DNA of 59,866 nt, from the NCBI RefSeq assembly GCF_003334385.1, contig NZ_QOWN01000029.1. One strand, written 5' to 3'. A model generated the notes under the pieces. That model saw nothing but the letters and a program-made list of their open reading frames with translations. It did no database searches and was not told where the DNA came from. The DNA comes from Escherichia coli (GTDB lineage Bacteria; Pseudomonadota; Gammaproteobacteria; Enterobacterales; Enterobacteriaceae). Both the position numbers and the translations under genes were made by a program. Below, in pieces: positions 1 to 59,866 of this stretch. The number at the start of each line of letters is the position of its first letter. Positions within the stretch are counted from its first letter, which is position 1.

Positions 1-97
1 TTATCGTGAGAGTAATTCATCGGCACGTTAAATCATATCAGGCGTAATACCACAACCCTTAAGTTAGCGCTTATGGGGTTTTTCCCCACCGTTCAGG

Positions 98-431
98 GTG
101 TTCCCCGCGCCAGCGGGGATAAACCGGTCATCACGATGAATCAAAATTTCGCCCGGCTGTGTTCCCCGCGCCAGCGGGGATAAACCGCTTCTCCACCGTT
201 TGGCGAATCGGTGTGAGGGGTGTTCCCCGCGCCAGCGGGGATAAACCGAATCTATTGTGAATTTGAAATGGTCCAGCACTGTGTTCCCCGCGCCAGCGGG
301 GATAAACCGGGTAAAAACACGGTCTGAACCGACATTCATGTGTGTTCCCCGCGTCAGCGGGGATAAACCGGGCGCACTGGATGCGATGATGGATATCACT
401 TGGAGTTCCCCCGCCCCTGCGGTAGAACTCC
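98..431 (+). CRISPR. Type I-E CRISPR array, 6 repeats and 5 spacers (iap-proximal trailer end)
   Basis: 29-nt repeat GTGTTCCCCGCGCCAGCGGGGATAAACCG at 98-126, 159-187, 220-248, 281-309, 342-370 (one C>T), with 32-nt unique spacers; degenerate terminal repeat GAGTTCCCCCGCCCCTGCGGTAGAACTCC at 403-431. Orientation matches crRNA sense on + strand. No cas genes in window. Confidence 0.95.
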
Positions 432-452
432 CAGCTCCCATTTTCAAACCCA

Positions 453-1490
453 TCAAGACGCCTTCGCCAGCTCCTTCACCAACGGTAGCATTATCCGCAT
501 AACGTCACGGCAGCGACGTTCTATTCTTCCAGGAAGTGCCTTATCAATATGCTGTTGATTATCCAGTCTTACGTCATGCCAGCTATTTCCCGCAGGGAAT
601 GCGGCTGTTTTTGCGCGTTGCTGATAACCATCCTTATTCCCAAGATTCCAGTTAGTCGCTTCCACCGAAAGTACAGCAATGCCCGCTTTGTCGAATATTT
701 CTGCGTCATTACAACACCCAGTGCCTTTCGGATAATTTTTATTCAAACCCGGATTGGTCGTTGCGGCTATTCCGTGACTGCGCGCAATTGCCAGCGCCCT
801 GTCGCGCGTTAATTTCCTTACTGCTTCAGGGGTTTTTACACCGCTGTTGAAATACAATTTATCGCCAACAATTAAGTTATCGAGATTAATCACCAGCAGC
901 GTATTTTTCTTTTCGGTGTCACTCATCCGCTTGAGTAAATTCTCAGCGCCTAATTTCCCTTCCTCTTCGCCGCTGGTCGCCACAAATCGAATACCATACT
1001 CGGTAGGCGTATTTTTCAGGCGTTCTGCCAATTCCAGCATGACACCTAAACCTGCGGCGTTATCATCCATTCCTTGTAACGTCAGCCCGCCGAGATTGGC
1101 ATCGGCGTCAGCATCGCTCAGCGGGGCGTAAGTATCCAGATGCGCCATAATGATGATCTGCTGCGGCGCTTTGCCTTCATGAGCGGCAATCACCGTACTT
1201 CCTGTCACGTTATGCCAGTTCTTGCGATTATCGCGGGCGGTATAAATATACCGACTATTAAATGTCCGAATATCACTGCGATAACCCATTTGCTGAAACT
1301 GTTGGCGAATATAATCGGCAGATAACATTTCTGCTGGAGTTCCGGTCATGCGTCCCGGAAAGAAAGTAGCAATATGTCGTGCCTGGGTATTAGCAAAATC
1401 GCCAGGTTTAGGTGACGAGGCGTGTACGGGGAGAATAAAGCATACGCCGAGCGCTAGGGCAGCGGTACGGTGGCGCAATGCGGAAAACAT
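453..1490 (-). CDS. iap: Alkaline phosphatase isozyme conversion aminopeptidase
   Basis: 345-aa ORF with signal-peptide-like N-terminus and M28-peptidase-like sequence; classic position convergent with the CRISPR array. Confidence 0.9.
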   Translation of the reverse strand: MFSALRHRTAALALGVCFILPVHASSPKPGDFANTQARHIATFFPGRMTGTPAEMLSADYIRQQFQQMGYRSDIRTFNSRYIYTARDNRKNWHNVTGSTVIAAHEGKAPQQIIIMAHLDTYAPLSDADADANLGGLTLQGMDDNAAGLGVMLELAERLKNTPTEYGIRFVATSGEEEGKLGAENLLKRMSDTEKKNTLLVINLDNLIVGDKLYFNSGVKTPEAVRKLTRDRALAIARSHGIAATTNPGLNKNYPKGTGCCNDAEIFDKAGIAVLSVEATNWNLGNKDGYQQRAKTAAFPAGNSWHDVRLDNQQHIDKALPGRIERRCRDVMRIMLPLVKELAKAS

Positions 1491-49556: not shown

Positions 49557-50711
<1,155 letters not shown>

Positions 50712-50721
50712 GTTTCAGCCT

Positions 50722-52259
<1,538 letters not shown>

Positions 52260-52496
52260 TTATTGTTTTATTACCAAACGGCAACCTAATCTAATCAGAT
52301 TGAAAGATTTAAAAGTGTTATTTTGATCGCAAAATGAAAGATAAATATTTTAATTTGAAAGTTTGAATAAAAGGATAGCGAGGGGAATGAGTTGAGTTAT
52401 GTAAAGTCCGTATCGGGCAGTGACTACCGCTTCCTTGTGCGGGGCGTGATGCTTTACCATACTTGCCCCTGGTTGAATCTGTTAAATGGACCCCTC

Positions 52497-53582
52497 ATGT
52501 TCAAGCGTCGTTATGTAACATTGCTTCCCCTTTTTGTGTTGCTTGCCGCCTGTAGCAGCAAGCCAAAACCTACTGAGACTGATACGACCACCGGAACGCC
52601 GTCTGGCGGCTTCCTGCTTGAGCCGCAGCACAATGTGATGCAGATGGGCGGCGATTTCGCTAATAACCCGAATGCCCAGCAGTTCATCGACAAAATGGTG
52701 AACAAACACGGTTTCGATCGTCAGCAGTTGCAGGAAATTCTCTCCCAGGCGAAGCGTCTGGATTCGGTACTGCGGCTGATGGATAACCAGGCACCAACCA
52801 CATCGGTGAAACCGCCATCAGGTCCGAACGGCGCATGGCTCCGTTATCGCAAAAAATTTATTACGCCGGACAACGTGCAGAACGGTGTGGTTTTCTGGAA
52901 TCAGTATGAAGATGCGTTGAATCGCGCGTGGCAGGTGTATGGAGTACCGCCGGAAATTATCGTCGGGATTATCGGCGTTGAAACCCGCTGGGGGCGCGTG
53001 ATGGGGAAAACTCGCATCCTCGATGCGCTGGCAACGCTGTCATTTAACTACCCACGCCGCGCGGAGTATTTCTCTGGCGAGCTGGAAACCTTCCTGTTGA
53101 TGGCGCGCGACGAGCAGGACGATCCGCTCAATCTGAAAGGTTCCTTTGCCGGGGCGATGGGCTACGGACAGTTTATGCCGTCGTCTTACAAACAATATGC
53201 GGTAGATTTCAGCGGCGACGGGCATATCAACCTGTGGGATCCGGTTGATGCGATCGGTAGCGTGGCGAACTATTTCAAAGCGCACGGCTGGGTGAAAGGC
53301 GATCAGGTCGCGGTAATGGCAAACGGTCAGGCTCCAGGCTTGCCAAATGGCTTCAAAACTAAGTACAGCATTTCGCAGCTTGCCGCCGCAGGTTTAACGC
53401 CACAGCAGCCGCTGGGCAACCATCAACAAGCCAGCCTGCTGCGTCTGGATGTTGGCACCGGCTACCAGTACTGGTACGGTCTGCCGAACTTCTACACCAT
53501 CACCCGTTACAACCACAGCACCCATTACGCAATGGCGGTCTGGCAGTTAGGACAAGCCGTGGCGCTGGCGCGAGTACAGTAG
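52497..53582 (+). CDS. mltB: Membrane-bound lytic murein transglycosylase B
   Basis: 361-aa product from MFKRRYVTLLPLFVLLAACSS (lipobox LAACS). ATG at 52497 chosen over the longer six-frame ORF from 52392, which lacks a signal peptide. Confidence 0.93.
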   Translation: MFKRRYVTLLPLFVLLAACSSKPKPTETDTTTGTPSGGFLLEPQHNVMQMGGDFANNPNAQQFIDKMVNKHGFDRQQLQEILSQAKRLDSVLRLMDNQAPTTSVKPPSGPNGAWLRYRKKFITPDNVQNGVVFWNQYEDALNRAWQVYGVPPEIIVGIIGVETRWGRVMGKTRILDALATLSFNYPRRAEYFSGELETFLLMARDEQDDPLNLKGSFAGAMGYGQFMPSSYKQYAVDFSGDGHINLWDPVDAIGSVANYFKAHGWVKGDQVAVMANGQAPGLPNGFKTKYSISQLAAAGLTPQQPLGNHQQASLLRLDVGTGYQYWYGLPNFYTITRYNHSTHYAMAVWQLGQAVALARVQ

Positions 53583-53726
53583 CTATTTACAAGAGGGGGG
53601 CGTGAGCTTCCCTCTGGCTAATCAGCTTTTTTCTGAATCCTCCTCGTAAAATTGCAACGCCAACACCATCTTCCTGACGAAAGTGCTATCTTGTCCGGCA
53701 TAAATTTTTGACTGACAGAGGTTGTG

Positions 53727-54224
53727 ATGACTGACAGTGAACTGATGCAGTTAAGTGAACAGGTTGGGCAGGCGCTGAAAGCCCGTGGCGCAACCGTAAC
53801 AACTGCCGAGTCTTGTACCGGTGGTTGGGTAGCGAAAGTGATTACCGATATTGCCGGTAGCTCCGCCTGGTTTGAACGCGGATTTGTCACCTACAGTAAC
53901 GAAGCCAAAGCGCAGATGATCGGCGTACGCGAAGAGACGCTGGCGCAGCATGGCGCGGTGAGTGAACCCGTCGTGGTGGAAATGGCGATAGGCGCACTGA
54001 AAGCGGCTCGTGCTGATTATGCCGTGTCTATTAGTGGTATCGCCGGGCCGGATGGCGGCAGTGAAGAGAAGCCTGTCGGCACCGTCTGGTTTGCTTTTGC
54101 CACTGCCCGCGGTGAAGGCATTACCCGGCGGGAATGCTTCAGCGGCGACCGTGATGCGGTGCGTCGTCAGGCTACTGCGTATGCATTGCAGACCTTGTGG
54201 CAACAATTTCTACAAAACACTTGA
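53727..54224 (+). CDS. pncC: NMN amidohydrolase (CinA-like C-terminal domain)
   Basis: 165-aa product MTDSELMQLSEQVGQAL with TAESCTGG motif. Confidence 0.9.
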   Translation: MTDSELMQLSEQVGQALKARGATVTTAESCTGGWVAKVITDIAGSSAWFERGFVTYSNEAKAQMIGVREETLAQHGAVSEPVVVEMAIGALKAARADYAVSISGIAGPDGGSEEKPVGTVWFAFATARGEGITRRECFSGDRDAVRRQATAYALQTLWQQFLQNT

Positions 54225-55365
<1,141 letters not shown>

Positions 55366-55384
55366 TCGTCTTGTTTGATACACA

Positions 55385-55415
55385 AGGGTCGCATCTGCGG
55401 CCCTTTTGCTTTTTT
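55385..55415 (+). terminator. Intrinsic terminator between recA and recX
   Basis: AGGGTCGCATCTGCGGCCCT hairpin followed by TTTGCTTTTTT. Confidence 0.7.
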
Positions 55416-55433
55416 AAGTTGTAAGGATATGCC

Positions 55434-55934
55434 ATGACAGAATCAACATCCCGTCGCCCGGCATATGCTCGCCTGTTGGATCGTGCGGTACGCATTCTGG
55501 CGGTGCGCGATCACAGTGAGCAAGAACTGCGACGTAAACTCGCGGCACCGATTATGGGCAAAAATGGCCCAGAAGAGATTGATGCTACGGCAGAAGATTA
55601 CGAGCGCGTTATTGCCTGGTGCCATGAACATGGCTATCTCGATGACAGCCGATTTGTTGCGCGCTTTATCGCCAGCCGTAGCCGCAAAGGTTATGGACCT
55701 GCGCGTATTCGCCAGGAACTGAATCAGAAAGGTATTTCCCGCGAAGCGACAGAAAAAGCGATGCGTGAATGTGACATCGACTGGTGCGCACTGGCGCGCG
55801 ATCAGGCGACGCGAAAATATGGCGAACCTTTGCCAACTGTCTTTTCAGAAAAAGTTAAGATCCAGCGTTTTCTGCTCTATCGTGGCTATCTGATGGAAGA
55901 TATCCAGGAGATTTGGCGAAATTTTGCCGACTGA
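55434..55934 (+). CDS. recX: RecA regulator RecX
   Basis: 166-aa ORF. Confidence 0.93.
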
Positions 55935-56061
55935 ACGCATACGGTATTTTACTTCCCAGTCAAGAAAACTTATCTTATTCCCACTTTTCAGTTACCAGCC
56001 CGGCGGTTAAGACACGCTGGAGCTGGTGGCGATATTTCGTTAGCTTGATTTCAGGATAATT

Positions 56062-58692
56062 ATGAGCAAGAGCACCGCTGAGATCCGTCAGGCGTTTCTC
56101 GACTTTTTCCATAGTAAGGGACATCAGGTAGTTGCCAGCAGCTCCCTGGTACCCCATAACGACCCAACTTTGTTGTTTACCAACGCCGGGATGAACCAGT
56201 TCAAGGATGTGTTCCTTGGGCTCGACAAGCGTAATTATTCCCGCGCTACCACTTCCCAACGCTGCGTGCGTGCGGGTGGTAAACACAACGACCTGGAAAA
56301 CGTCGGTTACACCGCGCGTCACCATACCTTCTTCGAAATGCTGGGCAACTTCAGCTTCGGCGACTATTTCAAACACGATGCCATTCAGTTTGCATGGGAA
56401 CTGCTGACCAGCGAAAAATGGTTTGCCCTGCCGAAAGAGCGTCTGTGGGTTACCGTCTATGAAAGCGACGACGAAGCCTACGAAATCTGGGAAAAAGAAG
56501 TAGGGATCCCGCGCGAACGTATTATTCGCATCGGCGATAACAAAGGTGCGCCATACGCATCTGACAACTTCTGGCAGATGGGTGACACTGGTCCGTGCGG
56601 CCCGTGCACCGAAATCTTCTACGATCACGGCGACCACATTTGGGGGGGCCCTCCGGGAAGCCCGGAAGAAGACGGCGACCGCTACATTGAGATCTGGAAC
56701 ATCGTCTTCATGCAGTTCAACCGCCAGGCCGATGGCACGATGGAACCGCTGCCGAAGCCGTCTGTAGATACCGGTATGGGTCTGGAGCGTATTGCTGCGG
56801 TGCTGCAACACGTTAACTCTAACTATGACATCGACCTGTTCCGCACGCTGATCCAGGCGGTAGCGAAAGTCACTGGCGCAACCGATCTGAGCAATAAATC
56901 GCTGCGCGTAATCGCTGACCACATTCGTTCTTGTGCGTTCCTGATCGCGGATGGCGTAATGCCGTCCAATGAAAACCGTGGTTATGTACTGCGTCGTATC
57001 ATTCGTCGCGCAGTGCGTCACGGTAATATGCTCGGCGCGAAAGAAACCTTCTTCTACAAACTGGTTGGTCCGCTGATCGACGTTATGGGCTCTGCGGGTG
57101 AAGACCTGAAACGCCAGCAGGCGCAGGTTGAGCAGGTGCTGAAGACTGAAGAAGAGCAGTTTGCTCGTACTCTGGAGCGCGGTCTGGCGTTGCTGGATGA
57201 AGAGCTGGCAAAACTTTCTGGTGATACGCTGGATGGTGAAACTGCTTTCCGTCTGTACGACACCTATGGCTTCCCGGTTGACCTGACGGCTGATGTTTGT
57301 CGTGAGCGCAACATCAAAGTTGACGAAGCTGGTTTTGAAGCTGCAATGGAAGAGCAGCGTCGTCGCGCGCGCGAAGCCAGCGGCTTTGGTGCCGATTACA
57401 ACGCAATGATCCGTGTTGACAGTGCATCTGAATTTAAAGGCTATGACCATCTGGAACTGAACGGCAAAGTGACTGCGCTGTTTGTTGATGGTAAAGCGGT
57501 TGATGCCATCAATGCAGGCCAGGAAGCTGTGGTCGTGCTGGATCAAACGCCATTCTATGCGGAATCCGGCGGTCAGGTTGGCGATAAAGGCGAACTGAAA
57601 GGCGCTAACTTCTCCTTTGCGGTGGAAGATACGCAGAAATACGGCCAGGCGATTGGTCACATCGGTAAACTTGCTGCAGGTTCTCTGAAAGTGGGCGACG
57701 CGGTGCAGGCTGATGTTGATGAGGCTCGTCGCGCCCGTATTCGTCTGAATCACTCCGCAACGCACCTGATGCACGCTGCGCTGCGCCAGGTTCTGGGTAC
57801 TCATGTATCGCAGAAAGGTTCACTGGTTAACGACAAGGTGCTGCGCTTCGACTTCTCACACAACGAAGCGATGAAACCAGAAGAGATTCGTGCGGTCGAA
57901 GACCTGGTGAACACACAGATTCGTCGCAATTTGCCGATCGAAACCAACATCATGGATCTTGAAGCGGCGAAAGCGAAAGGTGCGATGGCGCTGTTCGGCG
58001 AGAAGTATGATGAGCGCGTACGCGTGCTGAGCATGGGCGATTTCTCTACCGAGTTGTGTGGCGGTACTCACGCCAGCCGCACTGGTGATATTGGTCTGTT
58101 CCGCATCATCTCTGAATCGGGTACTGCTGCAGGCGTTCGTCGTATCGAAGCGGTAACCGGAGAAGGTGCTATCGCCACCGTTCATGCAGACAGCGATCGC
58201 TTAAGCGAAGTCGCGCATCTGCTGAAAGGCGATAGCAATAATCTGGCTGATAAAGTGCGCTCAGTACTGGAACGTACGCGTCAGCTGGAAAAAGAGTTAC
58301 AACAGCTTAAAGAACAAGCTGCCGCACAGGAGAGCGCAAATCTTTCCAGTAAGGCAATTGATGTTAATGGTGTTAAGCTGTTGGTTAGCGAGCTTAGCGG
58401 TGTTGAGCCGAAAATGTTGCGTACCATGGTTGACGATTTAAAAAATCAGCTGGGGTCGACAATTATCGTGCTGGCAACGGTAGTCGAAGGTAAGGTTTCT
58501 CTGATTGCAGGCGTATCTAAGGACGTCACAGATCGTGTGAAAGCAGGGGAACTGATTGGTATGGTCGCTCAGCAGGTGGGCGGCAAGGGTGGTGGACGTC
58601 CTGACATGGCGCAAGCCGGTGGTACGGATGCTGCGGCCTTACCTGCAGCGTTAGCCAGTGTGAAAGGCTGGGTCAGCGCGAAATTGCAATAA
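56062..58692 (+). CDS. alaS: Alanine--tRNA ligase
   Basis: 876-aa ORF starting [24 protein letters not shown]; class II aaRS motifs and editing domain. Confidence 0.98.
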
Positions 58693-58926
58693 TATAAGCG
58701 TCAGGCAATGCCGTGGACTCGCTTCACGGCATTCGCATTAACGCTATCGACAACGATAAAGTCAGGTTGAAGTTGTGTATATCGGCTAAACTTAGGTTTA
58801 ACAGAATGTAATGCCATGACTGCTTAGATGTAATGTGTTTGTCATTGCTTACTTTTTGGCGTTATATGATGGATAATGCCGGGATACAGAGAGACCCGAC
58901 TCTTTTAATCTTTCAAGGAGCAAAGA

Positions 58927-59112
58927 ATGCTGATTCTGACTCGTCGAGTTGGTGAGACCCTCATGATTGGGGATGAGGTCACCGTGACAGTTTTAGGGGT
59001 AAAGGGCAACCAGGTACGTATTGGCGTAAATGCCCCGAAGGAAGTTTCTGTTCACCGTGAAGAGATCTACCAGCGTATCCAGGCTGAAAAATCCCAGCAG
59101 TCCAGTTACTAA
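58927..59112 (+). CDS. csrA: Carbon storage regulator (RNA-binding global regulator)
   Basis: 61-aa [64 protein letters not shown]. Confidence 0.98.
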
Positions 59113-59427
59113 TCTTTCCGCGTCTCATCTTTATCGGTGAGACGCACCCTCAAAATTTCTCCTTCACTCTATAGTCTTTTCGCTTTACTCCCGTTCATTC
59201 AACTTAAGTCTCCATTTTTTTGCATTACTACTATCTGTCAGACCTCCATTCTTCTGTTGATAAAACACTCTTTTTGACGTTTTTACAGACTAATTGAACG
59301 TGAAGTGTGCAAACGATAAAAGTGTAGGAAAAATTGTTTGACTTATAAGTCTCAGAAAGTAATATGTGCGCCACGCAGCGACGATGAGCGATAAACAAGT
59401 TCTTCGAAGCACTCGTAAGAGGCGTGT

Positions 59428-59520
59428 GGTGAGGTGGCCGAGAGGCTGAAGGCGCTCCCCTGCTAAGGGAGTATGCGGTCAAAAGCTGCATCCGGGGTTC
59501 GAATCCCCGCCTCACCGCCA
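59428..59520 (+). tRNA. serV: tRNA-Ser (anticodon GCU), 93 nt with long variable arm
   Basis: GGTGAGGTGGCCGAGAGG...CCCCTGCTAAGGGAG...GGTTCGAATCCCCGCCTCACCGCCA; cloverleaf with anticodon GCT and encoded CCA. Confidence 0.95.
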
Positions 59521-59523
59521 TTT

Positions 59524-59600
59524 GCATCCGTAGCTCAGCTGGATAGAGTACTCGGCTACGAACCGAGCGGTCGGAGGTTCGAATCCTCCCGGATGCACCA
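59524..59600 (+). tRNA. argV: tRNA-Arg (anticodon ACG), 77 nt
   Basis: GCATCCGTAGCTCAGCTGGATAGAGTACTCGGCTACGAACCGAGCGGTCGGAGGTTCGAATCCTCCCGGATGCACCA; anticodon ACG, encoded CCA; only 3 nt after serV. Confidence 0.95.
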
Positions 59601-59798
59601 TATTCTACGTACTTTCAGCGATGAAGGTATGGAAGAGGTGGCGGTAATAACCGCAGGCACCAGGGAGGATAACGTTGCTTTAGCAACGGCCCGAAGGGCG
59701 AGCCGCAAGGCGAGTAATCCTCCCTGATGCACCATCTCTTACTTGATACGGCTTTAGTAGCGGTATCAAAAAATCTGCAGTAAAGTAAGTTTCCCGAT

Positions 59799-59866
59799 GC
59801 ATCCGTAGCTCAGCTGGATAGAGTACTCGGCTACGAACCGAGCGGTCGGAGGTTCGAATCCTCCCG
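59799..59866 (+). tRNA. tRNA-Arg (anticodon ACG), second copy, truncated by the window edge
   Basis: Identical to argV over the 68 nt present; the window ends before the last 9 nt. Confidence 0.9.

Follow-up and report, generated by a model that had tools for sequence, protein, structure and literature searches.

An iap-proximal CRISPR-I remnant in Escherichia coli, very probably stripped of its leader and cas genes through IS186

Here, we analyze a short type I-E CRISPR array at the 5' end of a 59,866-nucleotide stretch of Escherichia coli DNA (assembly GCF_003334385.1, contig NZ_QOWN01000029.1), which we call the window. The array is very probably an iap-proximal remnant of the CRISPR-I locus, of the kind known as "arrangement G", from which the leader, the cas genes and the newer spacers were removed by way of IS186, and which would now be inert. 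The original prediction had proposed a contracted or relic array, or one whose cas and leader region has been deleted or rearranged. This proposal stands: the flank ahead of the first repeat consists of the end of an IS186 element followed by a 22-nt stump of a spacer. We show where the array-side breakpoint lies and that genomes representing both precursor stages of the arrangement exist.

Anatomy of the array and of its upstream flank

The feature is a genuine type I-E array of the E. coli CRISPR-I (CRISPR2.1) locus, the locus being identified by iap, which adjoins the array. At positions 98-431 of the window, five type I-E repeats of 29 nt alternate with five spacers of 32 nt, and a degenerate terminal repeat closes the array. 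The start-to-start period is exactly 61 nt across all array repeats, and the crRNA sense of the array is the plus strand. The first four repeats (98-126, 159-187, 220-248 and 281-309) are all identical (GTGTTCCCCGCGCCAGCGGGGATAAACCG), and the fifth (GTGTTCCCCGCGTCAGCGGGGATAAACCG, 342-370) carries a single C>T variant that is found at the same position in all related arrays. Repeat 1 is now the foremost repeat, the leader missing ahead of it, and repeat 3 marks the site of a lost repeat-spacer unit, Sx, to which we return below. The spacers are S1 (GTCATCACGATGAATCAAAATTTCGCCCGGCT, 127-158), S2 (188-219), S3 (249-280), S4 (310-341) and S5 (371-402), all on the plus strand; S5 is the oldest and is common to K-12 and E1-type strains. 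The degenerate terminal repeat (GAGTTCCCCCGCCCCTGCGGTAGAACTCC, 403-431) has one difference from its K-12 counterpart. It ends 21 nt from the stop codon of iap (453-1490, minus strand), the gene for the alkaline phosphatase isozyme conversion aminopeptidase, which is convergent with the array; cysD comes next, at 1742. The earlier count of six repeats and five spacers, with a degenerate last repeat near the iap 3' end, is borne out by these coordinates.

The repeats of the window are those found beside the cas-E1 operons of strains J6 and A14 and are 1 nt off the K-12 repeats, which start with GAGTT where those of the window start with GTGTT. Their predicted fold is a Cas6e-type hairpin with a 7-bp stem and a 4-nt loop (-15 kcal/mol, z = -3.2). 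A scan of positions 1-600 against Rfam, in a release that possibly holds no suitable model, returned no CRISPR repeat family at the gathering threshold or at E<=1; an HgcF match in the same scan was dismissed as chance. The CRISPR-I array of K-12 MG1655 resembles that of the window in its site beside iap, in spacer S5, in a near-identical terminal repeat, in the 29-nt repeat family and in the 61-nt period. It differs in its AT-rich leader (27% G+C), in the presence of cas3 to cas2 upstream, and in its length. K-12 had been expected to carry roughly twice as many spacers as the window array; the direction of this expectation was right, but the size was an underestimate, as K-12 has 13 at the locus.

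Upstream of the array, positions 1-75 are the right-hand end of IS186/IS421 (IS4 family) on the minus strand, whose remaining part precedes position 1. These 75 nt are identical to the final 75 nt of complete 1,339-bp IS186 copies, and the 23-bp terminal inverted repeat of IS186 (CAACCCTTAAGTTAGCGCTTATG) is found at 53-75. The transposase start codon is located at 20-18 on the minus strand, with the gene directed away from the array, and in every match listed the PGAP label under the 5' end is an IS421/IS186B-family transposase. The junction between IS186 and the array falls at 75/76. The sequence at 76-97 was suspected to be a spacer stump because it lies directly before a repeat and is shorter than 32 nt. 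It corresponds to the 3' 22 nt of a spacer, S0, whose intact form is AGTTAAGAGGGGGTTTTTCCCCACCGTTCAGG, and its opening 10 bases are GGGTTTTTCC (plus strand). The array-side breakpoint lies inside spacer S0, at a G5T5C4 site.

Positions 1-97 as a whole contain no CRISPR repeat, and their alignment to a leader is no better than that of shuffled sequence: identity to both E. coli leaders is 43-52%, compared with a mean of 53% for shuffled sequence. Their G+C content is 44%, while the last 97 nt of the leaders have 27% (K-12) and 26% (the other E. coli variant). These values agree with the earlier description of the upstream 97 bp as being without a repeat and unlike the AT-rich leader. An alignment of 1-97 to the known leader had been named beforehand as the result that would refute the relic reading; the alignment was run, and none was obtained to either leader.

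Distribution of the IS186-array junction and its two precursor stages

We searched 5,426 complete E. coli genomes by megablast with positions 1-480 of the window and counted matches with a coverage of at least 80% that include the junction; 680 genomes reached this coverage. The same IS186-array junction is thus present in about 680 genomes (about 12%), and E. coli C, ML35 and UMNF18 carry it. In LAU-OXA, CH459 and FORC 064 the gene order is cysJIH-hok-IS186-22 nt-array-iap-cysDNC, with neither a leader nor a cas gene at the locus. The exact five-spacer allele of the window was confirmed in LAU-OXA and CH459, both of which are cas-less at the locus. The window is colinear with CH459 at 99.974% identity across its first 50 kb, a segment that includes the core genes iap, cysDNC, ftsB, ispDF, rpoS, mutS, hyp/hyc, asc, nor and srl; read through the colinear CH459 annotation, these first 50 kb contain no annotated cas gene. 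A cas2 gene or leader upstream had likewise been named in advance as speaking against a relic; where a genome shares the exact allele of the window, what lies there is IS186, hok and cysH alone. The window itself starts 75 nt inside IS186, and for this reason it is from relatives that we deduce that the source strain is cas-less and has no further IS186 copy; judged by these near-identical genomes, the strain would have no cas genes at the locus. In LAU-OXA (L001, 11401-14075) an ISVsa5 element (IS10-like) interrupts the array-side IS186, whose transposase therefore bears the annotation of a partial pseudogene. The last ~9.9 kb of the window (50,002-59,866) was scanned for RNA families, and the scan found a cluster of three tRNA genes at 59428-59866, the last one cut by the window edge; its position would fit the serV-arg tRNA cluster that follows csrA.

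The two flanks of IS186 in genomes of the arrangement G type are unlike each other, the left one ending in ...GGGGGTAAAACC (also given as ...GCGGGGGTAAAACC) and the right one beginning with GGGTTTTTCCCC... Since the flanks differ, there is no target duplication, and the element looks like the product of a rearrangement.

The first precursor stage is represented by genomes in which S0 is intact. They were recovered with a query made of a repeat abutting the 22-mer, to which genomes with intact S0 align by way of a 10-nt gap and so outrank the genomes bearing the IS. Intact S0 (AGTTAAGAGGGGGTTTTTCCCCACCGTTCAGG) stands directly before S1 in three genomes, A14, J6 and NCTC9041, and in all three the spacers that follow it are ordered S1-S2-Sx-S3-S4-S5. 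Upstream, all three have an AT-rich leader and a cas3-casABCDE-cas1-cas2 operon. Compared with K-12, Cas1 and Cas2 of this type are 84% identical, whereas Cas3 and the Cascade proteins reach only 22-31%; the Cas proteins of the intact-S0 genomes are those of the major cas-E1 variant, which served the ancestor of the window array. The cas-E1 operon and the leader are complete in J6. In A14 and NCTC9041 (L010/L011, 3509-6852) cas3 and casA are annotated as partial pseudogenes directly next to each other, suggestive of an internal deletion. J6 in addition has S3 duplicated in tandem (L012, 12274-12395).

An IS186 copy lies before cas3 in all three intact-S0 genomes, and in A14 and J6 it is located just after hok. 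There, the element has the 10-bp duplication GGGTAAAACC on both sides, within the target GGGGGTAAAACCCC. NCTC9041 has the GGGTAAAACC duplication on the cas3 side only. The left flank of its IS186 (L010, 1986-3325) is a CRISPR repeat fragment (...CGGTTTATCC) next to ygcE, not hok, which implies a further IS186-mediated rearrangement in this strain, a deletion or inversion between IS186 copies at CRISPR-II and at the hok site.

The second precursor stage has IS186 inserted in S0. As a probe we used the predicted left junction, composed of a repeat, AGTTAAGAGGGGGTTTTTCC and the left end of IS186; HSP425, AF58 and ES4 each contain all 114 nt of it with 100% identity. In these genomes S0 is split by a 1,339-bp IS186 that has the 10-bp duplication GGGTTTTTCC on both sides, and on the right the junction matches positions 53-126 of the window base for base. 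HSP425 (L013, 8087-15388) and AF58 (L015, 8148-15388) carry two IS186 copies in direct orientation, and the pair brackets cas3, a decayed cas operon, the leader and the proximal part of the array. The operon was already defective in both, since what remains of casA adjoins a shortened cas2. ES4 (L014, 3387-13392) has an ISVsa5 in its leader region, after cas2 and ahead of the first repeat, a cas3 truncated by IS1, and IS26 and IS903B further upstream, a large number of IS elements for one CRISPR-I locus.

HSP425, AF58 and ES4, only three of the roughly 680 junction-bearing genomes, retain cas remnants upstream. They raise the question whether the source strain might itself have the two-copy layout, with leader, proximal array and cas genes just upstream of the clipped IS186, as the window reaches only 75 nt into the element and these three complete genomes combine the exact right-hand junction with cas remnants. 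Apart from their rarity, the three have other alleles of the array (HSP425 keeps Sx, AF58 is without S2, and ES4 is without Sx and S3), while the exact-allele genomes LAU-OXA and CH459, the latter with its near-identity over 50 kb, are cas-less at the locus. We therefore regard a two-copy source strain as extremely improbable, and even then 1.3 kb of IS186 would separate the distal array segment from the leader.

The comparison of these alleles also bears on the content of the window array. The spacer Sx (ATTGTTATAATTATTTATTGAAATATCATTCC) is absent from the window, and S2-Sx-S3 is the ancestral order in the precursor genomes; the window allele has already lost one spacer. The allele with Sx, present for instance in FORC 064, is commoner than that of the window. 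Among the megablast matches listed, the first ten align in one piece, as expected for the five-spacer allele, and every two-piece match after them has Sx. Together with the losses in AF58 and ES4, the missing Sx fits decay by recombination between repeats.

A proposed origin of the deletion

From the precursor genomes we infer the following order of events. The ancestor would have had the order cysH-hok-IS186-cas3...cas2 (cas-E1)-leader L1-array-iap, with IS186 inserted at GGGGGTAAAACCCC just after hok. A second IS186 would then have entered the analogous site GGGGGTTTTTCCCC within S0 in the same orientation, duplicating GGGTTTTTCC. Homologous recombination between the two direct IS186 repeats would finally have removed one copy of the element together with everything from cas3 to cas2, the leader, every spacer acquired after S0, and the opening 10 nt of S0 itself. 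What would be left over is a single IS186, the 22-nt spacer stump, the five repeat-spacer units and the degenerate terminal repeat. In the coordinates of J6 the predicted deletion amounts to 9,487 nt (about 9.5 kb). Recombining the IS186 copies of HSP425 or AF58 type in this way yields the structure of the window exactly.

The geometry of the insertions is alike at the two sites, GG-GGGTAAAACC-CC at hok and GG-GGGTTTTTCC-CC in S0. This points to a very specific target for IS186, probably of the form G5-N5-C4, with the 10-bp duplication beginning at the third G. The duplication at a G-run/C-run target is seen in the relatives, outside the window. A consensus target of IS186 was reportedly described by saiSree and coworkers in 2001. 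Ten IS186 copies that we compared differ by at most 1 nt and should therefore be good substrates for recombination. We considered a single-nucleotide polymorphism at position 722 of IS186 as a marker for the crossover; among the ten copies it occurs in those of HSP425 and AF58 alone and is hence uninformative.

A shorter route to the same structure can be envisaged, in which the hok-side IS186 attacked GGGGGTTTTTCCCC in S0 intramolecularly and deleted the segment of cas genes, leader and array without any two-copy stage. The product would be identical, with a left flank derived from hok and a right flank starting with GGGTTTTTCC, and the site in S0 is of the same G-run/C-run type as the confirmed insertion at hok. 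However, genomes with IS186 in S0 do exist. Base and orientation of the insertion are identical, the 10-bp duplication is complete, and two of these genomes keep the hok-side copy. A one-step origin thus needs an independent second strike at the identical position. In addition, IS4-family elements move by cut-and-paste and less typically produce simple deletions of adjacent DNA. On balance the one-step route seems unlikely, and we favor recombination between two IS186 copies.

Functional state and relation to known CRISPR-I arrangements

Two of the spacers have recognizable targets. S2 matches conjugative IncF-type plasmids at 100%, in a TIR-domain gene, and its protospacer is preceded by an AAG PAM. 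S4 has 100% matches in the upf94.2/lxr region of phage P7, SJ46 and P1-like phage-plasmids, where the upstream 3 nt are CTG, not AAG. Neither S0, S1, Sx nor S3 has a protospacer in the phage and plasmid collections, and S5 matches only copies of the array itself. The search of the five spacers against such collections, as originally proposed, was therefore fruitful for S2 and S4 and not for the other three. On the strength of these two matches the spacers appear to be real immune memories.

Whether such memories can still be used depends on what lies ahead of the first repeat. In K-12, transcription of the pre-crRNA begins some 50 nt ahead of the first repeat; within the leader, Cas1-Cas2 contacts positions -1 to -4, the IHF site spans -9 to -35, and positions -50 to -55 form an upstream element (PMC10011333). 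In the window, positions -1 to -22 belong to the spacer stump, and IS186 takes up those from -23 onward. A crude consensus scan found no sigma-70-like site in 1-520 on either strand, and we found no usable documented outward promoter of IS186 in the literature. The promoter, the IHF site, the Cas1-Cas2 site and the cas genes of the locus having been lost, the array would be inert: it would make no mature crRNA, take up no spacers and change only by losing units.

A leaderless array could in principle still function if it were transcribed by read-through, or from a promoter at or close to the end of IS186, and if Cas proteins came from elsewhere in the genome or from a newly gained module. The repeats are intact with their predicted Cas6e hairpin, S2 and S4 perfectly match circulating IncF plasmids and P1/P7-like phage-plasmids, and the allele persists in about 12% of the complete genomes. 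Its persistence is, however, explained by clonal inheritance. The sigma-70 scan was negative, the transposase gene of IS186, and hence its promoter, faces away from the array, the matching genomes have no cas genes at the locus, and the arrays only lose units, which is consistent with neutral decay. Retained function is thus highly improbable. Highly improbable, too, is the broader notion that the remnant is not inert, being transcribed and holding a dormant P1/P7 and IncF memory that would be revived by re-acquisition of cas-E1, or serving a Cas-independent role. We therefore retain the reading of an inert remnant.

The arrangement of the window has a published counterpart. Almendros et al. 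(2014, mBio 5:e00767-13; PMC3903273) describe nine arrangements of CRISPR-I between iap and cysH, and they attribute the origin of arrangement G to recombination between two IS186 copies. Their major variant is cas-E1, and the minor variant is cas-E2, that of K-12 (PMC3903273). In arrangement G as they describe it, IS186 abuts a partly depleted CRISPR2.1 array beside iap and the L1 leader and cas-E1 are absent, as in the window; hok/sok and cysH lie beyond IS186, as in LAU-OXA, CH459 and FORC 064. Against this description nothing essential differs. The two-copy stage is called "predicted hypothetical" AH1 by the same authors (PMC3903273). Going by their textual description, HSP425 and AF58 appear to be this AH1 intermediate in complete genomes. 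The paper points mainly to repeats as the hot spots of IS186 (PMC3903273), whereas the breakpoint found here lies within spacer S0, not within a repeat.

Like orphan arrays in general, such as those of E. coli laboratory strains devoid of cas-E genes, the array of the window is a bona fide array without adjacent cas genes. Many orphan arrays keep a leader, as reported for CRISPR2.3 (PMC3903273), but the window array has lost its leader too. A search for strains that combine K-12 cas genes with the spacers of the window was also made. A chimeric query of K-12 cas1-cas2-leader and the window array was discarded, as megablast aligned the repeats whatever the spacers and the top two matches shared only S4 and S5 with the window. 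A second chimeric query, of K-12 cas genes and the spacers freed of repeats, returned no strain with both, because K-12 carries the minor cas-E2 variant and the array of the window descends from cas-E1 strains.

The allele of the window is thus already published, common and ordinary. Its value lies in being a clean example of an IS element erasing an immune locus, along a common and published route by which E. coli loses its type I-E system, and three stages of this route survive in sequenced genomes: one IS186, two IS186 and the recombined deletion. With the exact target sites known and isolates with two IS186 copies at hand, the rate at which the cas operon is lost through IS186 recombination is directly measurable. 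For annotation, arrays of the window allele should be labeled as orphan, leaderless remnants, and in their carriers, E. coli C and ML35 included, type I-E immunity from the CRISPR-I locus should not be assumed.
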